Positions 3,349-50,843 of a stretch of DNA of 64,000 nt are shown one piece after another. Location: NCBI RefSeq assembly GCF_049819085.1, contig NZ_CP187419.1, positions 5,021,518 through 5,085,517 on the forward strand, given 5' to 3'. Source of the DNA: Anatilimnocola sp. NA78 (GTDB lineage Bacteria; Planctomycetota; Planctomycetia; Pirellulales; Pirellulaceae). The notes beneath the pieces were generated by a model, which saw nothing but the letters and a program-made list of their open reading frames with translations, searched no databases and had not been told where the DNA came from. Every line of letters begins with the position of its first letter. Position 1 is the first letter of the stretch. The position numbers and the translations under genes are program-made.

Positions 3349-5727
3349 CTACTTACCGCTGCGTTCCAAAATGCGGATGGTCATTTCGCCGATATCCGAC
3401 TGCCGCTCCGAAACCTTGCGAACTTCACCCTTCAGCACGTCGTCGAATTCACCTTCTGCTGGACGAGCCGACTCGAGCGATTCCGTACGGCGATTCACAC
3501 GAAGCTGAGCAGCCCGCAGCAACTTCAGTTCGGCCGAGTTAGGCAGCAAAGGCTCGTTGCCTCCACCACCACCGCCGCCGCCACCCTCGCCGCCGTCTTT
3601 TTGCTTCTGGGCTTTTTGCAACGATTCGATTAGTTCTTCGAGCGTGATCTCAATTTCTCGCTGCATCGTTTGCGTGTAACCGTCCGTGCGGAGGTTATCC
3701 GAAAGGAGCGTACCGACCGTGATCAAATCGTCTCGCAGTTGTTCGACCACATCCGGAAAGACCACGCTGGTACCATCATCGAGAATGATCTCAAGCGCCT
3801 GCTGAGCTTTGAAGGCCAGCGGGATGCGGTCGGACTGCCCGTCTTGCTTGATGATGGCCAGGCCTCGTTCATCTTCACCGAGCGACTTCAGCGTATTGCG
3901 ATCGCTGCGGGCCAGGTTGCCCATGTTGTCGACTTTCTTTTTGTCGATGACGAGCGTGCGAGCCGAAAGGTCTTTCTGCACCGCCAGCATCTCACGGAAG
4001 CGAGCCTCCAACTTGGCGAGCTTTTCGACCTGGGTCTCTTCGCGCAACTGAGCGAGCCGCTCTTCAATTTCCTTCAAGGCATCTTCGAGATCTTTGATCG
4101 CCTTGCCTTGCTTGCGCGAGGCATCGGAAGGGTCTTGCTTGCGAAGATCGCCGGACGCCTGCTCCATCGACTTTTGAGCTTGTTGAACCTTTTGCTGGCC
4201 GGGCTTTGGCTTACCACCTTCGCCACCGCCCGATTCACCGCCACCAGGCTGGCCACCGCCAGGCTGACCGCCACCTTCCCCACCCTTTTTCTCGTCCTGC
4301 TTCATCTTCTCCTGAATCTTGCCGGTTTGATTGGCAATATCGTCTTGCTTGCCGGCCATCTTCTCAAATGCTTCGGGCGGCAAGGAGGCAATGCGTTGCG
4401 ATTCCTTCTTCAGCTCTCCCAAGGCTCGCTGGAGATTTTCGAGCGCGGTCTGCTCGTCTTGCTGGGCCGCTTTCCCTTTCCCTTCTTGCAGTTTGCCTTC
4501 GGCCTGCTTTTGATTTTCGATGGCTTGCTTTAGCGGGCGCTCGCCAGCTTCCGGTGGTCGTTGTGGCTGAACCCCCGGTTGTCCGCCTCCCGATTGACCT
4601 TCACCGGGCTTACCTTCACCGGGCTTACCTTCTCCGGGCTTACCTTCTCCGGGCTTACCTTCTCCGGGCTTACCTTCTCCGGGCTTACCTTCTCCAGGCT
4701 TACCTTCTCCAGGCTTACCTTCACCGGGCTTACCTTCACCGGGCTTACCTTCTCCAGGCTTACCTTCACCGGGCTTACCTTCACCGGGCTTACCTTCACC
4801 GGGCTTACCTTCACCGGGCTTACCTTCACCGGGCTTACCTTCACCGGGCTTACCTTCACCGGGCTTACCTTCACCGGGCTTACCTTCACCGGGCTTACCT
4901 TCACCGGGCTTACCTTCACCGGGCTTACCTTCACCGGGCTTACCTTCACCGGGCTTACCTTCGGCGTTTCCCTCTGCGGCCGGTTTGTCGCCGGCTTCTT
5001 TGCCGATCTGTTCAGCAACCGATTGAGTTCCTTCGCGGACCTTGGCTTGTTCGCTGGCAACTTTGCCCAGGCCTTGGATGCCGCTTTCGCGAGCCGTTTC
5101 GGTATTTCCGATAACTCCCTTTTGCTGCTCGATCAGGGCTTCGACCGCTTTGATCTTGGCTTCGAGCGATTTCAGCGTGTCATCTTTATTGGCGACGCGA
5201 TCGGCCTCTCGCTTTTCGCCCTTTTGCTGCTGAATGACTTCTTCGATCTGCTTCTTCCATTCGCTGAGCTTTTCGAACTCCTCACGAATCTTGTCCTTGT
5301 CGTTTTTCTCATCCAGCAACAGGGCGAGCAGGTCTTTCAGATCGCCGAGAATCTTTTGTTCTTCCGCTTTGGCCGGATCGAGTTGCTGCTGATCGAGCAT
5401 GCGGGTGATGAGGGCCATCCGCCCCTTGATGCCCAAGGCCTGAGACTGCTTCAGCGCGTCGGCCAGTTTCTGGGCTCGCTCGGGTTCCGCTTTGGCGAGT
5501 GCCTGAGCCAGTTGATTGAACTTCCGTTCCAGGTCCTCCACCATTCGCTCGACGTGAGCCTGCCGGACACCAAGTGGCGTCGTTTTAAAGCTGTCTGCTT
5601 CACTCGGCTTCGTCTGCCCGCTGGCCACTCCCGCAAGCAACAGGCCCGCCGCTAACGCCGCCGTCATGCCCAAGCGACACCCTCGCGCGGTGAGGCAATT
5701 CCACATGCGGGAAGTCAAACGATCCAT
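3349..5727 (-). CDS. Secreted coiled-coil protein carrying a (GEGKP)n pentapeptide repeat array plus poly-Gly/Gly-Gln tracts
   Basis: ORF track 3349..6078. The most plausible start is MDRLTSRMW... with a following signal-like [15 protein letters not shown] (codon arithmetic gives 5727). About 24 GEGKP repeats, long charged coiled-coil segments, and a [15 protein letters not shown] tract. Confidence 0.55.
4597..4965. repeat. Intragenic 15-bp tandem repeat (gggcttaccttcacc, ~24 copies; minor ttcacc/ttctcc variants)
   Basis: Read directly in sequence lines 4561-4980. Encodes (GEGKP)n on the minus strand. Alternate-frame ORFs (HRAYL..., GLTFT..., KVSPV...) are artefacts of this repeat. Confidence 0.9.
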
Positions 5728-6017
5728 GAGCCAATCCTCCGGGGCAGCCTGCGAACCGACGCGCACGTCGCGCGGGAATTGCCAGGCAGCAACGCAACCG
5801 CAACGAGCACTGGCGTGGTAACTGTCCCTTAGTCCAGTTGGGGGGCAGTTTGGTTCAATCCACTCCAATATGACGGGCGAAACAGGCAGCCGCAAAAGCA
5901 AATGGCCAAATTTTCGCAAATTGGTCGGCGGGCGACGCTGAAGTGGGTGGGGCGAGCATGCCCAGAAGATGGTGCGAACGGCCGCGAGCGAAGCCCAGCT
6001 TTCCAATCCGTCCCTTT

Positions 6018-6158
6018 TGTCCAAAAACCCTCGCGATTGTTGGACGGGTGACTTCCTGTGGCCGCGGCTGCAACTCATTGCTGCGTCGTGCCTTGCTGTC
6101 TATTCGGCACATTTCCAAACACGCCTATCTGTCCAACAACCCCCTCAGTTTTTGGACA
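6018..6158. promoter_or_regulatory. Two copies of inverted repeat TGTCCAA-N15-TTGGAC(G/A) (6018-6046 and 6130-6158) upstream of pyrB
   Basis: Seen in sequence. Identical half-sites and identical 15-nt spacing, 112 bp apart, 350-480 bp upstream of the pyrB start, in a 600-bp non-coding leader. Confidence 0.35.
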
Positions 6159-37145: not shown

Positions 37146-37808
37146 CCGCCTGTTCCACACGTTTCGACTTACGTCGAATCGCAACGCCTTCGTGCAGAGT
37201 CGCCGCGCTTGCATCCCGCCAAGCCGCCCGATATAATCCCGACATTATCGCAATGTCGTTAGTTATTGTCAAGTGTTTATTATGGACCTCCTTGCACAAC
37301 AACCCCTGAACAGAATCGCATTACCCTGGCCCCTTCCTCTCTAGCCTCTAGCCCCGCTCCTCGCCAGATTCAATTCCAACAGTCGAGCCAGCAGTTCGTC
37401 GTCGGTGAGCGTGACGGGCCATCCGCAATCGGCCAAGATCAACTCTGCGGGCACGACTCACCGCGATTCCGCAATTGGATTGAGGAAACCCGAAGCGTGA
37501 GCGAGGAGCGCGCTGTGGAAGTCTTGAACTGAACTCCCCGGGGGTTCGTTTACAAATCGTTCGTGCGATGTTCGAGGGCAGAAACGAATGGTCTGGCCAC
37601 GACGACACTTCCGTGCGGCGAAGAGCACTCTCCTCGCTCACGCTTCGGGTTACCTGAACAGGCGAGCGTGACGCCCGTAGTCAAGTCGAACGAATTCCGC
37701 GGCCAGCTTGGTATGGCAACGACGAACTAGCATCCACCGCTGTTGTAAGGGGATGCTGTCGAAATTCAGCCTAACGAATCCCTCGCATTGCTTGAGGCGC
37801 ACGTCGCG

Positions 37809-39992: not shown

Positions 39993-41090
39993 ATGGCAAC
40001 GACGAACGAGCAACAACCTTTGTTGTATGCAGATGCTGTCGAAACGATTCCCGCTGACGAGTCGGAAGATATTCGGCTGACGATTGCGGCGATGCAGCGG
40101 GTGCTGGAGCAGACGTTTCAAAAGAGTGGTCAACGGCGGCGCGATGTCCATTTGAAGTCGCACGGCTGCGCACTCGGGACGATGCAAGTGCTGCCGAACT
40201 TGCCAGCGGAACTGGCCCAGGGCATCTTTGCTCGCGAGCAGACTTTCGAGGCGGTGGTGCGGTTCTCGAATGCGGCCAGTTCGCCCCAGCCTGACTATGT
40301 GCCCGATGGTCGTGGTCTGGCCGTGAAGGTTTTGGACGTCGGAGGCGAATCGCTCACCGCGGAAAGTGGCACTGGCGCGCAAGCGAGCACCGCGACGCAA
40401 GACTTCGTCATGGTCAATCATCCGGTCTTCATTGCCCGCAATGTGAAGGACTACTTGCGCATTCAGCAGACCATCGCCGACACCGGCGACAACAAGCTGG
40501 CGACGCTCAAAGATGCGTTGACGGGTGGCGATTGGAACCCGCTGAATTGGCACTGGCGCGAAGCACTCACGGCTGCCCAAATCGCCAGCAAGTTGCCCGC
40601 CCATCCCGCCAGTTTGACTTACTTCAGCATGGCGCCGATCCGCTTTGGCGATTACGTCGCCAAGTATCGCGTGCGGCCCGCCTGCGAGATTGCTGGCTCC
40701 ATTCTCGAACTCGTGAATCAACTCGGCCAGCAAGCCGATGCGTTTCGCTGGATGCTCGAAGAAACGCTGCGATCTCAGTACCTGCTGTTCGAATTTCAAA
40801 TTCAGCTGCGAACCTCAGCCGAGAAGATGCCCATCGAAGATGCGATGGTGGAATGGCCGGAGAGCGAATCGCACTATCGCACGGTGGCGTTGCTATTATT
40901 GCCCCGTCAGGAAATCGCGACGGCTGAGCAACGCGCGACCTGCGATCAGCTGATGTTCGATGTGTGGCACGCAGTCGCGGCGCACCGACCACTAGGGGGC
41001 ATCAACCGCCTGAGGCGCGAAGTCTATCCCATCTCTGCTGCCTGGCGACGCCAGACAGCGAGCGAACATCCGGCGAGCGAATCGCCCTAA
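39993..41090 (+). CDS. Catalase-related (mini-catalase/heme peroxidase-like) protein
   Basis: RDVHLKSHGCALG, AVVRFSNA and DGRGLAVKV match the catalase heme-core motifs; 365 aa, no C-terminal catalase extension. Confidence 0.6.
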   Translation: MATTNEQQPLLYADAVETIPADESEDIRLTIAAMQRVLEQTFQKSGQRRRDVHLKSHGCALGTMQVLPNLPAELAQGIFAREQTFEAVVRFSNAASSPQPDYVPDGRGLAVKVLDVGGESLTAESGTGAQASTATQDFVMVNHPVFIARNVKDYLRIQQTIADTGDNKLATLKDALTGGDWNPLNWHWREALTAAQIASKLPAHPASLTYFSMAPIRFGDYVAKYRVRPACEIAGSILELVNQLGQQADAFRWMLEETLRSQYLLFEFQIQLRTSAEKMPIEDAMVEWPESESHYRTVALLLLPRQEIATAEQRATCDQLMFDVWHAVAAHRPLGGINRLRREVYPISAAWRRQTASEHPASESP

Positions 41091-41569: not shown

Positions 41570-42373
41570 ATGAAGAATCGCACAAACCACTTGGCCACCA
41601 TGCTGGTCGCATTTCTTCTCGGCTGGTCGTCGTCGACGATCGCTGCAGATGCCGTTCCACTGCCGGCCAAGGAGAAGTTTCATCTCTTCCTGCTTGTGGG
41701 GCAGTCAAACATGGCGGGTCGCGGCAAGGTCGAAGCCGAAGACAAGCAGCCCGCGCCTCGCGTGTTGATGCTCAACAAAGAGGGCGACTGGGTCCCCGCC
41801 GTCGATCCACTTCACTTCGACAAGTCGGCCGCTGGTGTCGGCCTCGGCAAGACTTTTGGCAAGTTGATTGCCGAAGCAAATCCGGACGTCACCATCGGCC
41901 TGATTCCCTGTGCCGTCGGCGGCTCGCCCATCGACTCGTGGAAGCCGGGAGTTCTCTACAAGCCAACCAACAGCCATCCCTGGGACGATGCCATCCGTCG
42001 TGCCAAGCTGGCGCAAGAGAAGGGCGTGCTCAAGGGTATGCTCTGGCACCAAGGCGAGTCCGATTGCTCCGCCAAGGCTGCTCCTGCCTATGCTGAAAAA
42101 CTACAGTCGCTCGTGGCTGCCTTTCGTAAAGAGCTGAATGCTGACGTGCCGTTTCTCGTGGGTCAGCTTGGTCAGTTCGACGAGGTTCCTTGGGACGACA
42201 ACCGCAAGCTGGTCGACCAGGCCCATCGCGAGCTTCCCAAGCACGTCACCAACAGCGCCTTCGTTCCCTCCGACGGCCTGAAGCACAAAGGGGACAAAGT
42301 CCACTTCGACTCCGCCGGCCTGCGCGAGTTCGGCAAGCGGTACGCCGAGGCCTACCTCAAGCTTGCCAAGTAA
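41570..42373 (+). CDS. Sialate-O-acetylesterase-like (SASA/DUF303) carbohydrate esterase
   Basis: Signal peptide; GQSNMAGRG catalytic-Ser motif; 267 aa. Confidence 0.7.
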   Translation: MKNRTNHLATMLVAFLLGWSSSTIAADAVPLPAKEKFHLFLLVGQSNMAGRGKVEAEDKQPAPRVLMLNKEGDWVPAVDPLHFDKSAAGVGLGKTFGKLIAEANPDVTIGLIPCAVGGSPIDSWKPGVLYKPTNSHPWDDAIRRAKLAQEKGVLKGMLWHQGESDCSAKAAPAYAEKLQSLVAAFRKELNADVPFLVGQLGQFDEVPWDDNRKLVDQAHRELPKHVTNSAFVPSDGLKHKGDKVHFDSAGLREFGKRYAEAYLKLAK

Positions 42374-42439
42374 GCCGGCAACAAGCGGTACTCGGCGATG
42401 TCCCGGCGCTTCGACCAACTGCCGGCCCTGCCCCGCCGG

Positions 42440-42960
42440 GTTTCCCCTCCGCTGAACAGTCCTCCGCATCCCTCTCGGCATTCCATTTTTGATAACTTTT
42501 TGCGCGAAAAATCGAAACCAACGCCTCGCTCTAACCCGTTCTGCTCCAAACTATTGCGATCACAACCGACCCAAAATCACCCGTTTCCTGATAACCATTT
42601 GATAACCACTCCTGCCCCTGTTCACTCCGCAGCCTGAACAGGCCCTAAACAGGGGGTCCAGTCTTCGTGGCGGCAGACCTCCTGGTCTGCCTTCCCCCGG
42701 CCTCTCCATTCTCTTCTGACGTCGCGGCAATCCTCCCGAACTTGCCTCGCTGAACAGTCCCTGTTCAGCGCTTCTGACAGCCCGTCTTGATAACTTTTTG
42801 CGCGAAAAATCGCATCCGCTTCCTCGCCCTAACCAGTTCTGCTTCAAGCCATTGCAATCAGAACCTCCCCAAAATCACCCGTTTCCCGATAACCGTTTGA
42901 TAACCACTCCTGCCCCCTGTGCGCTCCCTAGCCTGAACAGGCCCTAAACGGGTGGCTCAG
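42440..42960. repeat. Two tandem ~298-bp non-coding repeats, each with a TGAACAG/CTGTTCA hairpin, a TTGATAACTTTTTGCGCGAAAAATCG box and a CTGATAACC-N4-GATAACC box
   Basis: Period of 298 bp measured from gctgaacag (42451 / 42749) and ttgataac (42489 / 42787). ~85% identity between copies. Confidence 0.85.
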
Positions 42961-43251
42961 ACTGCCCCTCCTCGGTTAACCGAGCCGCTTGCGGCCGTTG
43001 AACTGGCAATCAAGTCAGTCCACACTTCTCCCGCGCAACCGCGTGGGTTAACCAAATACTGGGGCAGTAGGTCCAGGAACTCCGTACCTGACGACCTCGC
43101 TGAGTTGCAGTCAGGCGCGCGACGCTGGCCTTGCCCGACTCCGCCACTCGCTCCCATAAACCTTAAAATGTCCTTGACACTAAGTCAACAAATTGTAACA
43201 ATAATTCGGTGTGACACCGTCCGGCCAAAGTGCCCGGACCGCTCAACTCCG

Positions 43252-43722
43252 CTACTGAAGATCCCGAACAGAACTTTCGAAGCAATTGAGTTCAGCCTCA
43301 ATCACATCCCAAAATGAAGTCCCGCAAATGCTGAATGCGCCTCTTCCCTCGAAGTAGAAGTAGATTGGAAGCTCAACAAGAGGAGTGCCAGTTTCAAAAA
43401 ACATAAACTGTTCCCCCTGTCTCATTGCAAATACAAAAGCATTGTTGGGAATGGGCAACTTGCCATCTTCCCAGTTTGCCACCATCTCCTTCGCACGACT
43501 TTGCAATTCGACGAGCTGTTTGACTCGAAAATCGACATCGTCCCAAAAAGCTCCCGCGCTGTGCCCCACGGCCTTCAAGAACGAGCGGTAGTCTTCCGGC
43601 AAGGCAACCCCAAGCGTGGTTTCCAGCGAAGCTATCTCTACCTCGAATGCGCCGCAAATGGGTTGATGTTTCGCCAACCCGGCGGCAACAATTCGGTCAA
43701 CTAGCTTTCTCGAAGTGAGCAT
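43252..43722 (-). CDS. SUKH-1 (SMI1/KNR4) family immunity-type protein
   Basis: LPEDYRSFLKAVGHSAGAFWDD matches the SMI1/KNR4 core. Start placed at MLTSRK. The ORF-track N-terminal extension is read-through into the upstream repeat. Confidence 0.6.
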   Translation of the reverse strand: MLTSRKLVDRIVAAGLAKHQPICGAFEVEIASLETTLGVALPEDYRSFLKAVGHSAGAFWDDVDFRVKQLVELQSRAKEMVANWEDGKLPIPNNAFVFAMRQGEQFMFFETGTPLVELPIYFYFEGRGAFSICGTSFWDVIEAELNCFESSVRDLQ

Positions 43723-43786
43723 TGAACTCTTTCCAAACGCACTTTCTCTCGCTCGATGGTGCAGCAGCTTTTCGTAACTAAGTCCC

Positions 43787-43969
43787 CGCCAGGTGCCACT
43801 GGCTCGGCCAGTGCAGATTGGCCATCGCCGGGTTGCCTCCCAGCAGAAGAGAACCTCTTGCCTTTTTGCACAGGACAACCTCTTGGCAAAATGGCAAATC
43901 TCCAGCCGCCTTCGATCCAGCTACCCATTCGAGCCGGTCATTCACTGGCGAAGCCAGTGGCACCCGGCG
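43787..43969. repeat. MITE/attC-like 183-bp palindromic element, copy A (17-bp terminal inverted repeats CGCCAGGTGCCACTGGC / GCCAGTGGCACCCGGCG)
   Basis: Three >90% identical copies (A, B, C). Each sits 6-60 bp beyond the stop of a minus-strand gene. Confidence 0.8.
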
Positions 43970-44029
43970 CACGACCACGTCTCAAATCACAGGGACCGCG
44001 ACGCCCGCCCGGTCCGCTCCAATGGCTGG

Positions 44030-44524
44030 TTATGTGCCGGCCGACTGCCGCCACACCGGTTTGGCCGCACACCGCAAATCGACGCCGCGCCACTTCAACA
44101 GAGCGTAGAGAGCGCGGTCAATTAGCAACCTATCCGCCCAGATTGCGATCGAGCCCACCAAGGTCTGACCGTCGAGCGGATCGGCATAGACGACGACCTG
44201 AATCCGCCAGTCTTTGTAAACATCTATCAACAGCGCCCGCAGCTCATCGAGGAATGCCTGTGAAAAGCTGTCGATCGACGCCTCCAGATGCCGCGTGTGA
44301 TCCGGCCACCAGTCCCAGCCGATTTCCAGATGCTTCTCCACGTAGCTGGGCTCATACAAGCGATCCGCCACCGCCACGATTCGCTTGCGAAGCTCCTCGT
44401 CCCTCCGCACGTAATCCGCCTCTGCCTGTTCGCCTTTGAACTTCGCGATCCGCGCAGAGGCTTTGAACAGATCGTCAAAGACATCATCTTTCGCGGCTAT
44501 CGTGACCTCGCGGACGTCATTCAC
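44030..44524 (-). CDS. Hypothetical cassette protein (GTG start); last ~8 codons share nucleotide homology with the 3' end of the gene at 48145
   Basis: 164-aa acidic cytoplasmic protein. Its start abuts the duplicated recombinase-5' segment. Confidence 0.45.
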   Translation of the reverse strand: MNDVREVTIAAKDDVFDDLFKASARIAKFKGEQAEADYVRRDEELRKRIVAVADRLYEPSYVEKHLEIGWDWWPDHTRHLEASIDSFSQAFLDELRALLIDVYKDWRIQVVVYADPLDGQTLVGSIAIWADRLLIDRALYALLKWRGVDLRCAAKPVWRQSAGT

Positions 44525-44654
44525 AAGCGGCTCGCCTCCGGCAAATAACTTCTTATTCTACAGAATCGCCACGAGGCTTGATTCTTGATAACAGGAGTTT
44601 TATTCTGTCGAACGGGAAATAGATGTCAATCATTTCCTTCAGAATCTTCCAAGC

Positions 44655-44801
44655 TTGCGACGGAGCGGGAGGTGTTCGGTGGCCACAGAAACGACTCCAG
44701 TCAAGCCCGGCCCGAAGCTGTTGGAGCGAATGCGTCACAAGTTACGCGCCAAGCATTTGGCATTGAGCACCGAACGGAGTTACCTGCATTGGGCCGAGCG
44801 G
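44655..44801 (+). pseudogene. 5' fragment (first ~49 codons) of an integron-integrase-like tyrosine recombinase, copy 1, interrupted by repeat element X
   Basis: KLLERMRHKLRAKHLALSTERSYLHWAER matches the IntI/Xer N-terminal SAM-like domain motif (R.[22 protein letters not shown]). The reading frame then diverges into the inserted repeat. Confidence 0.6.
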
Positions 44802-45023
44802 CGGGTGGCATGGGTTCTACCCATGTCCTCCTTGGTCTTCTGAGGTAAGGATCCTCGCCAGCCGAGGCAAAACTCAACTCGATTTCACCAGCAACTGCAG
44901 TCCTGCGTTACCCCAGAACAGTTTGAGCTCCACCAAAACTGGCACTCGACGTCACACGAGAATTGCCAGCAGACATGGGTAAAACCCATGCCACCCAGAG
45001 ATGGCGAATGACCACGCATGCCA
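44801..45023. repeat. Second repeat family (element X, ~220 bp) with terminal inverted repeats GGTGGCATGGGTTnTACCCATG / CATGGGTAAAACCCATGCCACC, copy 1
   Basis: Near-identical copy at 46276-46499. Confidence 0.75.
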
Positions 45024-45029
45024 ACACCG

Positions 45030-45212
45030 CGCCAGGTGCCACTGGCTCGGCCAGTGCAGATTGGCTCTCGCTGGGTTGCCTCCCAGCGGAAGAGAACCTC
45101 TTGCCTCTTTGCACAGGGCAACGTCTTGGCAAAATGGCAAATCTCCAGCCGCCTTCGATCCAGCTACCCATTCGAGCCGGTCAGGCACTGGCGAAGCCAG
45201 TGGCACCCGGCG
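45030..45212. repeat. MITE/attC-like 183-bp element, copy B
   Basis: Same termini as copy A. 13 bp beyond the stop of the LRR gene. Confidence 0.8.
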
Positions 45213-45225
45213 TTGTAACCCATGC

Positions 45226-45981
45226 TCATTCCGCAATCAAAAAATCATTCTCCAATTGCCAGTCGCCATTAGAAGTGTGAACCACCTCTAATTCTGGGCG
45301 CAGCTGCCGCAGGCGATCAACACACGTTGATGATACGAGGGACCCGGAGAGATCCACTCGTCTCAATCGAGTCGATGCAATCAGTTTCTCGATTATAGCA
45401 TCTGACACCTGAGTTAACGACACATCAAAGGAATGCAGGATCGGCAATCTTAAGAGACAAAGTGCGACATTATCATCCATTTTAGTCCGCGAACAGTCAA
45501 GCTCCTCTATGCCAGAAAAAATACTTACAAGTTCCCTTGCGAAATCAACGTCAACTTGTTCTCGCGAAAGTGCAATCCTTCGCACATTTCTCCAGCCTCT
45601 CATCGATTCGACAGCTGAAGGCGGCAGTTCTTTTAAAAATATATATTGAGCTGACGTAGATCTTGGCATCATCGCGTTGCACGCTCCGCCTTTGCAGTCC
45701 ACGATCACCGTCCTCAGCGAGCGCAACTCCTCAATTGCCCGAAAGTCGCTCATTGCTCCGCAGTCAATCCTGGCAAGTGCAGGATGAGCGGTGGGCAGCC
45801 CAATCCATGAGGGAAATTCAAGTGAAGATTGCTCATAGAGTTCGAGGCTGCATCCATTTTCCTTGAGCTCCCGCTCAGCTGACAGCAAGTCACGATGAAA
45901 TCTCAGTCGCTCGCTGATACAAAAGGCTACAAGAGCTGCGACAACCATCAAGAGCAATAATGCGCGGATCGAGAATGTCAT
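45226..45981 (-). CDS. Leucine-rich-repeat (RNI-like) membrane-anchored protein; low-GC, likely horizontally acquired
   Basis: Start at MTFSIRALLLLMVVAALVAFC (TM), then L-rich repeats. The DNA of 45.3-46.1 kb is visibly AT-richer than its surroundings. Confidence 0.5.
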   Translation of the reverse strand: MTFSIRALLLLMVVAALVAFCISERLRFHRDLLSAERELKENGCSLELYEQSSLEFPSWIGLPTAHPALARIDCGAMSDFRAIEELRSLRTVIVDCKGGACNAMMPRSTSAQYIFLKELPPSAVESMRGWRNVRRIALSREQVDVDFARELVSIFSGIEELDCSRTKMDDNVALCLLRLPILHSFDVSLTQVSDAIIEKLIASTRLRRVDLSGSLVSSTCVDRLRQLRPELEVVHTSNGDWQLENDFLIAE

Positions 45982-46275
45982 TTTTAGTCTACTTAACGGA
46001 GATTCGCGCTGGTGTATATTGGCCAGTGTGCTTTTTGTAGTGACAGCCCGTTTGCCGATTGCGCCTGTTTGACTCATCCTAGCTAAACCCCCAGCTATCC
46101 TGAGAATTCCATTGCGCAAATCTGTTTACTATAGTAATGTTGTCTAAGTGCCCTTGACTAATCCCCACAGGCCGCAACACTTGGTGCATAGGATCACTTG
46201 AGTAGGTTTGATCTCCGTTGGCGTCCGATATTGTGATGCTTTGTAAAATCAAGTGCGAGCCGAACCAAAATCCTG

Positions 46276-46499
46276 CGGCGGGTGGCATGGGTTGTACCCA
46301 TGTTCTTCTTGGTCTTCTGAGGTAAGGATCCTTGCCAGCCAAGGCAAAACTCAACTCGATTTCACCAGCAACTGCAGCGCGGCGTTACCTCAGAACGGTT
46401 TGAGCTCCACCAAAACTGGCACGCGACGGTCCGCGAGAGTTGCCAGCAAACATGGGTAAAACCCATGCCACCCAGAGATGGCGAATGACCACGCATGCC
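46276..46499. repeat. Element X, copy 2
   Basis: Same TIRs as copy 1. 32 bp beyond the stop of the 46532 gene. Confidence 0.75.
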
Positions 46500-46531
46500 A
46501 CCCCGCCGCCGCAGTCAGGTGCAACTGATTG

Positions 46532-47206
46532 TTATCCCGCCTTTTCAATGCGTGCTTTTACCCATTCAACAAACGTGGCCGGATCCATGTTACCCGCAAC
46601 ACGGAACTCACAAGGCTCCTCGGAGTCCCAGTGAGCTTCGGGCGTCGGAAATTCGCCTTGTCTGTCTTCGCCCCAATACATCGTCGTCTCTTCGTAGTCA
46701 TTGATCCTGAAAGCCGAACCTTTATTGCCTTCAAAGATGTACATCCCCGACACCTTGAATTCGTCGGCTATGCCCGGTTGACCAAAAGCACGAACGAGCG
46801 AGCGAGGGCTGACATGCAACATGGTCCCGAACCCATTCAAATCCTTCGTGGTGTCGGAGACAAGATCAAATGTACTGCTGTCGTCAGCGGGCGCAACGAC
46901 CGGCTCTTGTTTCTTACGAAAACCGGGTTTGCCCCTGAAAAACTCATGTTTGCTCACCCAGACGATCTGGCCGAAAACATCGTACTCTTCACCGTCAAGT
47001 TGAAAAGAGCCAATGGTGTTGATTCGACCTTCCGTTTGACTGCTGAACGTGAGCTTCAGATTCGTTGCATCTGCGGGCATGTTGTTCACAAACGCCGTGG
47101 AAGCGAACTGCATGAAGTCGGCAAAACTTGGCGGAGTAGTTTTGCGCCAACATGACTTGTAGGATTCGACGTCAATCAACGCTTCAAGTTGTTCTTTGAC
47201 GGTCAT
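46532..47206 (-). CDS. Hypothetical cassette protein (224 aa, acidic)
   Basis: ATG start 12 nt from the second copy of the recombinase-5' segment. No recognisable domain. Confidence 0.45.
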   Translation of the reverse strand: MTVKEQLEALIDVESYKSCWRKTTPPSFADFMQFASTAFVNNMPADATNLKLTFSSQTEGRINTIGSFQLDGEEYDVFGQIVWVSKHEFFRGKPGFRKKQEPVVAPADDSSTFDLVSDTTKDLNGFGTMLHVSPRSLVRAFGQPGIADEFKVSGMYIFEGNKGSAFRINDYEETTMYWGEDRQGEFPTPEAHWDSEEPCEFRVAGNMDPATFVEWVKARIEKAG

Positions 47207-47328
47207 GTCTTTAGCGGGATAACTTCTTATTCTACAGAATCGCCACGAGGCTTGATTCTTGATAACAGGAGTTTTATTCTGTCGAACGGGAAATAGAAGT
47301 CAATCATTTCCTTCAGAATCTTCCAAGC

Positions 47329-47484
47329 TTGCGACGGAGCGGGAGGTGTTCGGTGGCTACAGAAACGACTCCAGTCAAGCCCGGCCCGAAGCTCTTGGAG
47401 CGAATGCGTGACAAGTTGCGTGCCAAGCATTTGGCATTGAGCACCGAACGGAGTTACCTGCATTGGGCCGAGCGGTTCATACGC
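47329..47484 (+). pseudogene. 5' fragment of integron-integrase-like tyrosine recombinase, copy 2, truncated exactly at the left end of MITE-like copy C
   Basis: ...LRAKHLALSTERSYLHWAERFIR then the frame enters cgccaggtgccactggc. 258 bp (47219-47477) is ~97% identical to 44545-44800. Confidence 0.6.
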
Positions 47485-47664
47485 CAGGTGCCACTGGCTC
47501 GGCCAGTGCAGATTGGCCATCGCCGGGTTGCCTCCCAGCAGAAGTGAACCTCTTGCCTTTTTGCACAGGGCAACATCTTGGCAAAATGGCAAATCTCCAG
47601 CCGCCTTCGATCCCACTACCCATTCGAGCCGGTCAGGCACTGGCGAAGCCAGTGGCAACCGGCG
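47482..47664. repeat. MITE/attC-like 183-bp element, copy C
   Basis: Same termini as copies A and B. Ends 30 bp beyond the stop of the gene at 47695. Confidence 0.8.
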
Positions 47665-47694
47665 CCCCTGTCGATAGGGAAGGCCATAGAGAGG

Positions 47695-48060
47695 TTAGGC
47701 CGACTTCCTTTGCAACCACTCCTGATACTGTCTCCAATCATCGTCAATCGCCGCTTGCTGCACGGTTTCTGAAACATCGCCAAATTCAATCTCGCGCATG
47801 TATCTCGGATATTCCGCCTCCGCAAGGACATCTCGGTAGTCTTGGATCGCGGTCTGCGTTTCGTCCAGAAGTCGAGCAAGATCACCGTTTACGAGCTTGA
47901 GGATGGCGAGTCGCACGCGCGGGTTGGGGCGATTCCAATCCTGCTTTCCGAACTCTTCGAGAATCGAAAGCGCCAGTGCAGCCTGAGCATCGCCAAAGTC
48001 GCGGAGCGCGATCCTCTTTACGTCTTCGTAAGTCACATCTGGGATGGGTTGTTCCGCCAT
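47695..48060 (-). CDS. Hypothetical small cassette protein (121 aa)
   Basis: Acidic, helical, no known domain. Immunity-protein-like context. Confidence 0.4.
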   Translation of the reverse strand: MAEQPIPDVTYEDVKRIALRDFGDAQAALALSILEEFGKQDWNRPNPRVRLAILKLVNGDLARLLDETQTAIQDYRDVLAEAEYPRYMREIEFGDVSETVQQAAIDDDWRQYQEWLQRKSA

Positions 48061-48144
48061 AAGCGTGTCGGCCTAACGACCAAGTTCACCTGCTGCGGCG
48101 GCGGTGAGACGTTGAACTCTGAAAAAGCCGTAATGCCGCCGCAG

Positions 48145-48669
48145 TCAGGTGCAACGGCTGGTTATGGCCGGCCGGTTGCCGTCGAACTCCACATGGAAGC
48201 CTACCGGTAGAAGCCAATACGGAGCGAATCGCGCGTCATGAATCGTCAGCTCGTACAGCGACTGAAAATGCAAGTTCGCGGGTTCATTCACATCCAAGGG
48301 ATCGTCGGCGACTCCAACGAACCAACCCGATTTGTTGCCTTCAAGCTGATCGAGTCGCTCCATGAATGCACGCGGCGACCCCGGCATGTAAGACCTGCTG
48401 ATGAGCGCCGCATGCCACAGCGCACAGCGCTCCGGCTCAACCCGCTGTTTGGCCAACACAGCCGACTGTTCCGCGTCGATACGTTCCACTGGCCCGAAAT
48501 CTCGAGTGAACGACGCCATGGCCAGGAAATCAAGTGTCTCCAAGTCCAATTGGCCGTTCTCGACGATGGCCTGAAAGATGAACCAGCCGTACTCGACTGA
48601 CTCGCCGTGCTTAACGGTGCGCGTGGAGAGGAAGTCGAGGACATTCGATCGTAGAGCACTTGAGGCCAT
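48145..48669 (-). CDS. Hypothetical cassette protein (174 aa)
   Basis: Its 3' end shares the ggctggttatgGccggccgGTtgcc segment with the 3' end of the 44030 gene. A hairpin, cacctgctgcggcggcgg ... ccgccgcagtcaggtg, lies 3' of its stop. Confidence 0.4.
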   Translation of the reverse strand: MASSALRSNVLDFLSTRTVKHGESVEYGWFIFQAIVENGQLDLETLDFLAMASFTRDFGPVERIDAEQSAVLAKQRVEPERCALWHAALISRSYMPGSPRAFMERLDQLEGNKSGWFVGVADDPLDVNEPANLHFQSLYELTIHDARFAPYWLLPVGFHVEFDGNRPAITSRCT

Positions 48670-48922
48670 AACTACTTATAATCTTGCGCGGCGGTCATGT
48701 TAACCTAAGCCGCGATCAAGGGATCGAATCCGATCTATCTGAAGTAGGTTAAGTGGGTTACGCTCCGAATGTCAACTGATAAGCAAACCAGCAATTCTTG
48801 CGCAGCGTGAGTCCAACTAAAAGGCTGCTGCTGAGGTTGGGGAAAAGTTCCGGACCGGTTGCTTACGGGGTGCGAGAACAACCGGATTGAGAGCGTGAGG
48901 AAAATGACCGAGCAAATTGGGG

Positions 48923-49405
48923 CTAAGCGATCGATTGGTCAGCAAGTGCAACGGCGGGCCGTGGGGCCAAGACGAGCCGCATGAACACTTTGTCCAGGCC
49001 CGGCTGATACCCGTCGACGATCACCCGAAACGCCTCGAAGTCGAACCGGGCGAAAAACGGAGCGGTGTGCTGACTCGTGTCGATCAAAACGCACCACGCA
49101 TGGGTAATCTGCCGAATTTGCTCGAGCCGCCACTGGAGCAGGCTCGCCCCTACTCCCCGTCGGTGCCAGTTCGCGCGGACCATGCCCCATTCCAGGTAAC
49201 CCACCCCATAGTCATCGACACGAAACCCACCGCACCCGCGGACCTCCCCCGCGATCTCAGCGACGAAGAAAGGCTGATCCCGCCGCCGCAGGTAGGCCGC
49301 GAAGAGATCTCGCTCAGGCGCGGTGAAATACTTCGGCCGGTTGCTGTCGAAGATTTCCAAGCAGGCCGACTCGTCGTCTTGTCGGTACTCACGAATGTCT
49401 CCCAA
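48923..49405 (-). CDS. GNAT-family N-acetyltransferase
   Basis: RGVGASLLQWRL acetyl-CoA binding motif; 160 aa. Confidence 0.7.
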   Translation of the reverse strand: MGDIREYRQDDESACLEIFDSNRPKYFTAPERDLFAAYLRRRDQPFFVAEIAGEVRGCGGFRVDDYGVGYLEWGMVRANWHRRGVGASLLQWRLEQIRQITHAWCVLIDTSQHTAPFFARFDFEAFRVIVDGYQPGLDKVFMRLVLAPRPAVALADQSIA

Positions 49406-49547
49406 GAGCGACCTCCGCTGCTGAACGGATCAATGTTCAATGGCCAACACCGCGCCGACAAACTCCGACTTTACCAAAACGCTCAACGCCAAGTGCCGCT
49501 GGCTCGGCTGGCGAAGCCACTGGCATAGCGCAAGATCTGTTCGCGAC

Positions 49548-50843
49548 CTACTTCCCCGCGACGTCGTAACAGAAGATCAACTCCTGATCGCGCAAAAACA
49601 GTTTGCTGTTGGCAACGACCGGCGGCGTCCAGATTTTGCCGCTCGGTTTGCGCAGCTTCGATTGCTCGGGAATGCGGAACGTCGCGACGATGTTAGGAGC
49701 CGTCGGATTGGCCTCGACGACCGCCAGGGTGCCATCACCTTCGGCGTACGTAAAAAGTTGGCCATCGGCATAAGTGACGGAACCAGCCCGCAGCTTCGCG
49801 CGCTCGGTCCAGGCGATTTCGCCCGATTCGAGTGACTGGCACAGCCAGCCGCGGCCACCAGCGCCATAGATGTGTTCGCCGACGAGCACCACATTGCCGT
49901 GATGATTGGCCAGGTTGCGGTTCGTGTACACTTCCTCCGCAGCGAACTTGCCGTCGCTCGGTTTGATCCGCAGCAACGTACAACCATGCGCGCCACCGAC
50001 GGTCACATAGACAAGCGAGCCGCGCACGATGGGACTATTGACGACTTCGGTCCCGTACTTGGTTTCCCACATCCACAACAGCGAGCCATCTTGAGCACTC
50101 ACCCCAAACACGCCCTGATTCGTGAGCACCACATATTGTCGCTGGCCGTTCACTTCGGCAAGCATCGGCGACGCATACGCTGCCTGCTGAGTGACTTCTT
50201 TGCTGCGCCATAGCACTTCGCCGGTCTTTTTATTCAAAGCAGCGACGGTTCCTTGTGGTCCGCCAGGCAGACAGACCAGTTGATCCCCGTCGACGAGCGG
50301 CGACCAGGTGAATCCCCAGCCCAGCTTCTTGGGGCCACCACCAATGGGATTCACTTCGGCGGCCAGATCGGCGGGGAGATTCTTTTTCCAAACCACTTTG
50401 CCATCTGCTTTGCCGACACAGACCAGGTCGCCATTGCCACCCAGCGCGAAGATCAAGTCGCCATCGACCGTGGGTGTGGCACTGGGCCCCGCGCTCCAGT
50501 TGTTCCCTTTGAAGTCGAACAGCGGACCAATTTCGGTGGCCCACGCTTCTCTCACGTTGCCATCGACAAAGCTGCTGGTATCGAGCGCAATCAGGTACTC
50601 TTTGCCGTCACGGGCACCCATCGTGTAGAGCCTGTCGCCAACGATCGCTGGTCCCGAGTAGCCAATGCCCGCATTGCGGTAAGTCCACAGGAGCTTGGGG
50701 CCTTCCTTCGGCCAGTCTTTCAACAGTCCTTTTTCTGCCGAGACGTCGTCACGGTTCGGCCCGCGATACTGCGGCCAATCGTCGGCAACCGCCACCAGTG
50801 GGAGCGCGCAGCAAAGGGCGAGAGTGAGCGAAGAGGCGTTCAT
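49548..50843 (-). CDS. PQQ-repeat beta-propeller protein (BamB-like fold), secreted
   Basis: Start at MNASSLTLALCCALPLVAVADDWPQYRG. Repeated PQQ-type blades. Confidence 0.7.
   Translation of the reverse strand: MNASSLTLALCCALPLVAVADDWPQYRGPNRDDVSAEKGLLKDWPKEGPKLLWTYRNAGIGYSGPAIVGDRLYTMGARDGKEYLIALDTSSFVDGNVREAWATEIGPLFDFKGNNWSAGPSATPTVDGDLIFALGGNGDLVCVGKADGKVVWKKNLPADLAAEVNPIGGGPKKLGWGFTWSPLVDGDQLVCLPGGPQGTVAALNKKTGEVLWRSKEVTQQAAYASPMLAEVNGQRQYVVLTNQGVFGVSAQDGSLLWMWETKYGTEVVNSPIVRGSLVYVTVGGAHGCTLLRIKPSDGKFAAEEVYTNRNLANHHGNVVLVGEHIYGAGGRGWLCQSLESGEIAWTERAKLRAGSVTYADGQLFTYAEGDGTLAVVEANPTAPNIVATFRIPEQSKLRKPSGKIWTPPVVANSKLFLRDQELIFCYDVAGK

Follow-up and report, generated by a model that had tools for sequence, protein, structure and literature searches.

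A palindromic repeat with outward-tagged terminal hairpins in a degenerate integron of Anatilimnocola sp. NA78

Introduction

Repetitive extragenic palindromic sequences (REPs) are thought to be moved by REP-associated tyrosine transposases (RAYTs), the genes of which have the same REPs on either side (PMC3733652; PMC6006769). The GTAG superfamily of REPs, which includes the families GTAG-20 and GTAG-21 of Rhodopirellula baltica, has been described (Di Nocera et al. 2013; PMC3733652), as have hairpin-forming REP doublets, known as REPINs (Bertels and Rainey 2011, as cited in PMC3733652). Integrons have been reported in Planctomycetes, and pseudogenes of the integrase gene intI occur near a few attC clusters that have no integron-integrase (CALINs) (Cury et al. 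2016; PMC4889954). The subject of the present work is a 183-nt palindromic repeat that occurs in three copies within 4 kb of the genome of the planctomycete Anatilimnocola sp. NA78. The stretch analysed, called the window below, comprises 64,000 nt of contig NZ_CP187419.1 (positions 5,021,518 to 5,085,517, assembly GCF_049819085.1), and all coordinates refer to it unless another locus is named.

The repeat is sharply bounded, palindromic and non-coding, and its copies occupy attC and intI junctions in a degenerate integron, beside a sister family of 236 nt. It is composed of two inverted tagged hairpins of the form 5'-(CGCC)RGGTGC-CACTGGC-NNN-GCCAGTG-3', with the tags outward, around a core of about 130 nt that is genome-specific and largely self-complementary. 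With a probability of roughly 0.55, it is taken to be a non-autonomous REP doublet, i.e., a palindromic repeat similar to REPINs or to miniature inverted-repeat transposable elements (MITEs). The assignment to the REP-doublet class was made because the architecture matches that of the tagged head-to-head REP dimers in PMC3733652.

Structure of the 183-nt repeat

Repeat search and MAFFT alignment placed the copies on the plus strand at 43787-43969 (copy 1), 45030-45212 (copy 2) and 47482-47664 (copy 3). An earlier note on this DNA had reported three copies of equal length with more than 90% identity, and this was borne out; all are 183 nt long and in direct orientation, with no insertions or deletions and with pairwise identities of 95.1, 95.6 and 94.5%. 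The similarity breaks off sharply at CGCC... and ...GGCG. The outer flanks are indeed unrelated, as the note had stated, but the flanks do not differ completely, in that copies 2 and 3 each adjoin other repeats on the left; these are a 257-nt repeat carrying an integrase fragment and, between it and copy 2, a 236-nt palindromic repeat. A search for target-site duplications, which the note had proposed, gave none at the three copies, the flanks being tcccc/cacga, caccg/ttgta and tcata/cccct. The description of the element as MITE-like thus agrees with its small size, its lack of coding capacity, its terminal inverted repeats (TIRs), its sharp ends and its unrelated outer flanks, but not with the missing duplication.

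The TIRs had been described as perfect over 17 bp, which proved incorrect; 16 of the 17 positions match in copies 1 and 2 and 15 of 17 in copy 3. The mismatch in copies 1 and 2 is A versus G at position 5 and corresponds to the A/G ambiguity recorded earlier at the terminus. The complementarity reaches further inward, up to 28 nt with 24-25 matches. At the left end, the palindrome reported before is real and reads CACTGGC-tcg-GCCAGTG followed by C, although the last base of the string quoted at the time was wrong. The palindrome is present at the right end too, as CACTGGC-gaa-GCCAGTG, which had gone unmentioned. All six reading frames of the element are nearly open, and the peptide CAKRQEVLF(C/R)WEAT..PICTGRASGTWRG, noted earlier, is present in spurious minus-strand open reading frames (ORFs).

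Both ends of all three copies contain a 7-bp stem with a 3-nt loop (CACTGGC-NNN-GCCAGTG), preceded by the unpaired tag (CGCC)RGGTGC. In a pattern scan, the left hairpins (GGTGC-CACTGGC-tcg-GCCAGTG) were found on the plus strand at 43792-43813, 45035-45056 and 47487-47508, and the right hairpins (GGTGC-CACTGGC-ttc-GCCAGTG) on the minus strand at 43943-43964, 45186-45207 and 47638-47659, the last with one mismatch. Six occurrences of the terminal 22-mer GGTGCCACTGGCNNNGCCAGTG were counted in the window, compared with 0.05 expected by chance. The 183 nt as a whole form one imperfect palindrome, for which 69 base pairs are predicted in single-stranded DNA (ssDNA), with z scores of -6.7 and -6.0 on the two strands. 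The predicted long hairpin is closed by a continuous 28-bp stem; in an alternative fold, each end forms a separate small hairpin. No base pair is altered on both sides among the three copies, and hence these copies, being only three and about 5% apart, give no evidence of covariation.

A fourth, degenerate copy was recognised at 49486-49525 (plus strand) by alignment to the joined element ends. This relic consists of two termini joined without the core and is located between a PQQ/BamB-like gene and the first cassette of the integron, i.e., at the proximal edge of the array. Beside it, the 8-mer GTTGAGCG (minus strand, 49480-49487) starts that first cassette, and the same 8-mer recurs at 43240-43247 after the stop codon of the last (SUKH) cassette. 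This may reflect chance (about 0.2 occurrences expected) or the split halves of an original integration site.

Distribution of the terminal hairpin and of the core

The terminal 22-mer was searched in one genome per species (185,579 species, 596 Gb), and the counts obtained are lower bounds. Exact matches were found in more than 120 loci, with about 4 expected by chance in 596 Gb from uniform-base arithmetic, and all 120 loci listed belong to Planctomycetota. Among the matches listed, the hosts include Pirellulales, Planctomycetaceae, Isosphaerales, Thermoguttaceae, Lacipirellulaceae, Candidatus Kuenenia and another Anatilimnocola. The earlier note had held that an element occurring only here, with no conservation of its TIRs elsewhere, would argue for a local duplication; the termini in fact recur at a minimum of 120 Planctomycetota loci.

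The overlap between the element and these other loci is restricted to the terminal 23-28 nt. Neither the core of about 130 nt nor the 236-nt family nor the integrase repeat had a match in 0.9 Mb of other Planctomycetota loci, and the hairpin of the sister family, CATGGGT-N3-ACCCATG, was absent from the same set. One 20-mer of the core gave two chance matches only in metagenome contigs. Translations of the element returned no candidates for one minus frame and, for one plus frame, none among 1.84 billion protein representatives. The claim of a novel family therefore holds for the core but not for the termini, which are shared across the phylum and are not private to this genome. In Rfam 15, no match was obtained at gathering thresholds for the window and 18 loci, nor at E ≤ 1 for 42300-49700. 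Viral contigs yielded five solo and apparently coding matches to the 22-mer and no doublets, and the literature on the motif and on MITEs or REPs of Planctomycetes, as far as it was searched, yielded general REP surveys only. The 22-nt hairpin, found from Pirellulales to Kuenenia, is thus absent from Rfam and from the literature searched.

In other genomes, the hairpin occurs mostly as convergent doublets with outward tags. Among the matches listed, there were 42 such pairs, 56-197 nt long with a mode of 66-78 nt, and about 15% of the doublets have a long core of 130-200 nt, as in the window. The motif is strand-specific; it is preceded by G in 141 of 152 cases, and its loop is biased towards T-Y-T. 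Relatives carrying the tag GGGTG(C/G) have different complementary stems, namely CACTGGC, CATGGGT, CACTGCTGG, CACTGGTGG and CCCCGATAGC. Doublets with one and the same spacer were observed at four to six dispersed loci of single metagenome-assembled genomes (MAGs), one set comprising loci L001, L025, L028, L061, L078 and L106 and another L007, L036, L063 and L076. By crude gene calls, the intergenic regions in which hairpin clusters are located are codirectional in 30 cases, convergent in 16 and divergent in 8, a distribution like that described for REPs (PMC3733652). None of the 162 Pfam families found in 140 neighbouring ORFs was enriched, and no transposase was among them; the neighbours are mostly housekeeping genes (recA, GAPDH, acetate kinase). 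Substitutions in the partner hairpin mostly disrupt pairing, which fits a decaying repeat and not a selected RNA.

Two further observations were made at these loci. A MITE of about 130 nt contains the hairpin doublet inside outer TIRs (TA/GTGCTTTGTCA…AGAATT…GGGTT), is bounded by CTAG/TA and resembles the IS630/Tc1-mariner type. It is multi-copy within genomes and common to several orders, and it was seen at L001, L025, L028, L061, L078 and L106 in one MAG and at L021, L041, L063, L094, L111, L116, L118 and L040 (Kuenenia). Exact 22-mers also occur inside long ORFs as G-A-T-G-S-A-S repeats (L012, 6150-6210; L015, 3877-3935; L052; L082, 494-556; L085, 5394-5600); codon usage may have produced these by coincidence, or they may represent hairpin repeats within genes.

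The sister family and the surrounding integron

The 236-nt palindromic element was detected by repeat search in two copies on the plus strand, at 44798-45033 and 46275-46510, which are 91.8% identical. Its termini, GGGTGG-CATGGGT-tct-ACCCATG … CATGGGT-aaa-ACCCATG-CCACCC, have the same architecture as those of the 183-nt element with a different stem. Copy 1 fills the junction between an integrase stump and copy 2 of the 183-nt element, and in cassette 4, copy 2 is located at the attC apex, with L'' (GTTGCACCTGACTGCGGCGGC) on one side and a partial L'-R' (GCCGCAGGATTTTGGTTCGGC) on the other. A filled and an empty version of one paralogous junction could be compared, GAGCGG-(229 nt)-CGCCAGG versus GAGCGG-TTCATA-CGCCAGG (47475-47482); this is the sole comparison of its kind and concerns the sister family only.

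Both families reside in a degenerate integron cassette array with intI fragments (42480-49530, minus strand), which was identified from ORFs, domain matches and attC boxes. The array (42.5-49.5 kb) is flanked by the PQQ/BamB-like gene and a sialate esterase gene. All its cassette ORFs are on the minus strand. Domain matches were obtained for a SUKH/SMI1 ORF (43252-43722), an Imm33-like ORF (48145-48669) and the GNAT ORF of the first cassette (48923-49405); four small cassette ORFs, taken from the ORF list, are found at 44030-44524, 45226-45981, 46532-47206 and 47695-48060.

Cassette 6 has a canonical attC, GGCCATAAC-cagcc-GTTGCACCTGACTGCGGCGGC…GCCGCCGCAGCAGGTGAAC-ttggtc-GTTAGGCC (48070-48169, minus strand), which was recognised from its boxes and its bottom-strand fold (z -4.5). 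In this fold, the R stem is followed by an open spacer and by an L stem, in which two bases are extrahelical (bulged), and the loop is variable. The start and end boxes are complementary in four cassettes, in keeping with the rule for circular cassettes; they are GTTATGGCC/GGCCATAAC in cassette 6, GTTAGGCC/GGCCTAAC in cassette 5, GTTATCCC/GGGATAAC in cassette 4 and GTTATTTGCC/GGCACATAAC in cassette 2. The R''-L'' arm GTTGCACCTGACTGCGGCGGC was found again at 46505-46525. Integrons and CALINs are recognised by two or more attC sites together with co-oriented cassettes, and the array offers a canonical attC, a second R''-L'' arm, four box pairs and seven ORFs. At the distal end of the array, two tandem ORF-less units of about 298 nt were found as repeats (42489-42963, minus strand). 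They contain GGTTATCAAAyGGTTATC direct repeats and share a 10-mer box, GTTATCAAGA, with the integrase-fragment repeat; they may be attI-like sites or ORF-less cassettes.

The three copies of the 183-nt element occupy different junctions in this array. On the minus (cassette) strand, copy 1 comes after a short attC-like region of cassette 2 and before the SUKH cassette. The right end of copy 2 abuts GGTTACAAC, the R''-like box that ends cassette 3, and its left end abuts copy 1 of the 236-nt element. Copy 3 is fused on the left to a truncated integrase fragment (…HWAERFI/R) and on the right is separated by 29 nt from GGCCTAAC, the R'' box of cassette 5. Cassettes 3 and 5 lack the 3' halves of their attC sites; with these halves gone and the integrase truncated at the element, the ends of the element coincide with rearrangement breakpoints.

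Secondary invaders of attC hairpins and REPs include IS1111-attC elements, group IIC-attC introns and REP-targeting IS110-family elements, and these invaders encode their own enzyme, either a DEDD transposase or an intron reverse transcriptase/ribozyme. The present elements resemble them in position, with a 236-nt copy at an attC apex and the 183-nt element just after R'' boxes, but both the 183-nt and the 236-nt elements encode nothing.

Integrase fragments

The 257-nt repeat was found by repeat search and domain match on the plus strand at 44545-44801 (copy 1) and 47219-47475 (copy 2), with 97.7% identity between the copies. Its plus-strand reading frame corresponds to about the first 45 codons of an integron integrase (PF13495, E 1.2e-7); the best NCBIfam matches are TIGR02249 (E 9e-7) and NF011946, with profile positions 1-46 covered. 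A promoter-like site, TTGACA-16-CAGAAT, located at 44602-44629 in copy 1 and at 47276-47303 in copy 2, is predicted to be directed into the cassettes, and the repeat stops exactly at the attI-like crossover G/TTAT that opens the next cassette. On account of this combination of an intI 5' end, a promoter-like site and a crossover end, the repeat resembles a truncated intI-promoter-attI platform, of which there are two copies in the window. No intact integrase and no catalytic tyrosine-recombinase domain was detected in the window.

The annotated 64-aa mini-ORF P0121 of NA78, identical to window positions 47353-47547, begins in the integrase stump and continues into the element. A third stump, P0122, is found elsewhere in NA78, about 1,430 accession numbers from P0121; the proteins XRN63417 and XRN64849 represent two of the integrase fragments. 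P0122 is cut at an earlier codon (33 versus about 45 codons) and continues as AGGMGST, as the CATGGGT-type end would be translated in one frame. The intI stumps, two in the window and at least one elsewhere, are thus cut at different codons, and all are joined to a GGGTG-tagged hairpin element.

It was also observed that the integrase alignments made with hidden Markov models and tblastn run on for about 15 codons into copy 3, within its first 15-18 codons (47482-47535), where FIR/QVPLARPVQIGHRRV is aligned with FIRFHxxRHPxxMGxxEV. With 3 identities in 16 positions, this continuation is likely due to chance, which was judged likelier than an origin of the start of copy 3 by recombination within intI.

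The region is a decayed chromosomal integron, i.e., a CALIN with intI fragments. Like other CALINs, the surrounding 7 kb form a cassette cluster without an intact integrase; unlike them, two 5' intI fragments (at least three genome-wide) have been kept here together with promoter and attI, and each is fused to a hairpin-ended palindrome.

Search for a mobilising enzyme

A regular-expression screen of the 120 hairpin loci returned one RAYT-like ORF of the HUH-Y1 type (locus L028), located 3 kb from a hairpin and unflanked. It matches NF047646 with E 4e-10, which is under the model cutoff, and has 3,772 relatives, some of which are named RayT by JGI. No transposase was found between long-spaced end pairs or outer TIR pairs in the window or in the 0.9 Mb of loci. 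One of the other RAYT-like genes examined (L125, 4001-5041) is followed by a doublet of its own, GCGGTGA-agat-TCACCGC with ggagt/actcc tags, at 5093-5330, a candidate for the REP that is cognate to this RAYT family. A palindrome-associated transposable element derived from IS200/IS605 was considered as well and was excluded; the two tagged hairpins of the 183-nt element are inverted with outward tags and are not same-orientation asymmetric ends.

Competing explanations

The 183-nt element shares with tagged REPs and REPINs the 7-bp GC-rich stem, the 3-nt loop and a conserved unpaired 5' tag, and with REP dimers the head-to-head arrangement of two units with outward tags, 20-100 bp or more apart and able to form a single larger hairpin. 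As with REPs, there is no target duplication, the location is intergenic with a bias away from divergent regions, and families with one tag and several stems co-exist; the tag of the sister family, GTGG, directly at the stem, is a variant listed for Opitutus in PMC3733652. If the element is a REP doublet, its copies would have been inserted in a hairpin-dependent manner without target duplication, probably via an ssDNA intermediate and an enzyme acting in trans, and the hairpin-rich integron, with its attC sites and other copies, would have been a preferred target. The direct copies could then have served as recombination breakpoints, at which intI was truncated and the attC 3' halves were removed. 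The same recombination would have juxtaposed or duplicated the intI'-promoter-attI modules and left the array largely immobile.

Several points set the element apart from known REPs or weigh against this assignment. The tag GGTGC is neither the canonical GTAG nor a variant listed in PMC3733652, and the spacer of about 130 nt is longer than usual. The hairpin is invariant over the phylum, whereas REPs usually differ between genera. Within the window, the hairpins are confined to the integron, with none in the other 57 kb, whereas REP populations are typically dispersed, and searches with the core outside the window leave the full 183-nt element seen only in these 4 kb. A paralogous empty site is available for the sister family but for none of the 183-nt copies, and one of copies 2 and 3 may have arisen by block duplication and not by insertion, since both share the integrase-fragment repeat. 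No CACTGGC or GGGTG-tagged hairpins flank the five RAYT-like genes of other Planctomycetota that were examined (L028 and L123-L126) within 1-4 kb, and no transposase was enriched near the 120 hairpin loci.

An immobile origin, in which local segmental duplication and unequal recombination within the array spread a pre-existing host hairpin pair, would account for the finding that all copies are direct within 6 kb, with none detected elsewhere in the searched sets, that two of them are linked to the same 257-nt repeat and that hairpins are lacking in the remaining 57 kb. However, in every copy the hairpin tags mark the exact limits of the similarity, left and right, the neighbours differ, and copy 1 has no linked 257-nt repeat. 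Where that repeat is present, its two copies are more alike (97.7%) than the adjacent 183-nt copies (94.5%). The sister family also shows a filled and an empty paralogous junction, and elements built alike are found in several dispersed copies in other genomes; local duplication is considered improbable. To the same degree improbable is a classical MITE, that is, an internally deleted derivative of an insertion sequence (IS) with a DDE transposase, which a transposase from another part of the genome would mobilise by cut-and-paste. Its parent IS should have ends matching CGCCRGGTGCCACTGGC. The TIRs of 17-28 bp, the small size and the absence of coding capacity would suit such an element, and in many other Planctomycetota the same doublet forms the inner part or centre of the roughly 130-nt TIR element with the IS630/Tc1-mariner signature, which is small, non-coding and multi-copy. 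The copies in the window, though, lack the outer TGTCA…AGAATT arms, and none of the three has TA, CTAG or a target-site duplication, the latter in particular making cut-and-paste by a DDE-type enzyme unlikely. No parent IS was seen in the window or in the sampled loci, no end pair encloses a transposase in the 0.9 Mb, and no DDE family is enriched nearby.

That the repeats are simply the attC sites of the integron, comparable to the 120-130-bp Vibrio cholerae repeats (VCRs) of Vibrio superintegrons, is suggested by their position at cassette junctions in one orientation relative to the cassettes, by the location of copy 2 directly after an AAC box, and by their form; like the attC sites of sedentary chromosomal integrons, they are imperfect palindromes in the 100-180-nt range, alike within the array (about 95%) and with unrelated flanks. 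This explanation is largely refuted and has very little probability left. The ends read CGCC…GGCG, without R''/R' boxes of the type RYYYAAC/GTTRRRY; only copy 2 abuts AAC, and no copy is followed by GTT. The continuous 28-bp stem has neither the unpaired central spacer nor the extrahelical bases of the true attC at 48070-48169, and the array possesses its own attC type, GTTGCACCTGACTGCGGCGGC, seen twice. The element is associated with only three of the seven cassettes, one copy abuts an integrase coding fragment, and the termini occur throughout the phylum outside integrons. A structured RNA or a bidirectional terminator or insulator, maintained by selection on its hairpins and passed from cassette to cassette as a barrier to read-through, was given somewhat more weight but is still quite unlikely. 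The strong fold predicted on both strands and the depletion of doublets elsewhere in divergent intergenic regions are consistent with it, and REP-type elements are often transcribed and located downstream of genes (PMC3733652). On the other side, Rfam gave no match, not even at E ≤ 1, the stems are not followed by a T-run, no terminator-like call falls within the 183-nt element, pair changes on both sides are lacking among the copies, and partner substitutions elsewhere break the pairing. A secondary terminator effect would be compatible with these points.

Other repeats in the window

Two repeats outside the integron were also observed. A 909-aa minus-strand ORF (3349-6078) contains 24 tandem 15-nt units, ACCTTCACCGGGCTT, at 4597-4962 with 97% matches, which encode (KPGEG)n. 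A 52-nt direct repeat (85% identical; 37713-37764 and 39993-40044) begins with ATGGCAACGACGAAC at the starts of two plus-strand ORFs and may represent a shared leader or N-terminus.

Implications

The combination of a near-invariant hairpin distributed over a phylum, no RAYT flanked by it in five cases and a repeated association of tagged hairpins with integrase stumps in NA78 is unusual. A far-reaching but doubtful interpretation is that the hairpin GGGTGC-CACTGGC-NNN-GCCAGTG would be the recognition module of an undescribed Planctomycetota-wide system, the trans-acting partner of which would not be a REP-flanked RAYT. Its 19 bases, near-invariant from class to class within the phylum, would then reflect a conserved ssDNA- or RNA-binding enzyme of the host or of an element. 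The Anatilimnocola integron would have been hit repeatedly, as three independent intI 5' fragments fused to tagged hairpins and the invaded attC apices might indicate, and such repeats would inactivate and fossilise integrons.

For genome annotation, the element explains several spurious ORFs, and P0121, annotated as an integrase N-terminal domain protein, is a stump fused to a repeat. The hairpin motif can be used as a marker for scanning the genomes and MAGs of Planctomycetota. The conservation of the hairpin makes a conserved binding or processing activity in Planctomycetota a candidate, and small palindromes located in attC sites and against truncated intI genes point to a possible route by which integrons decay to immobile CALINs.

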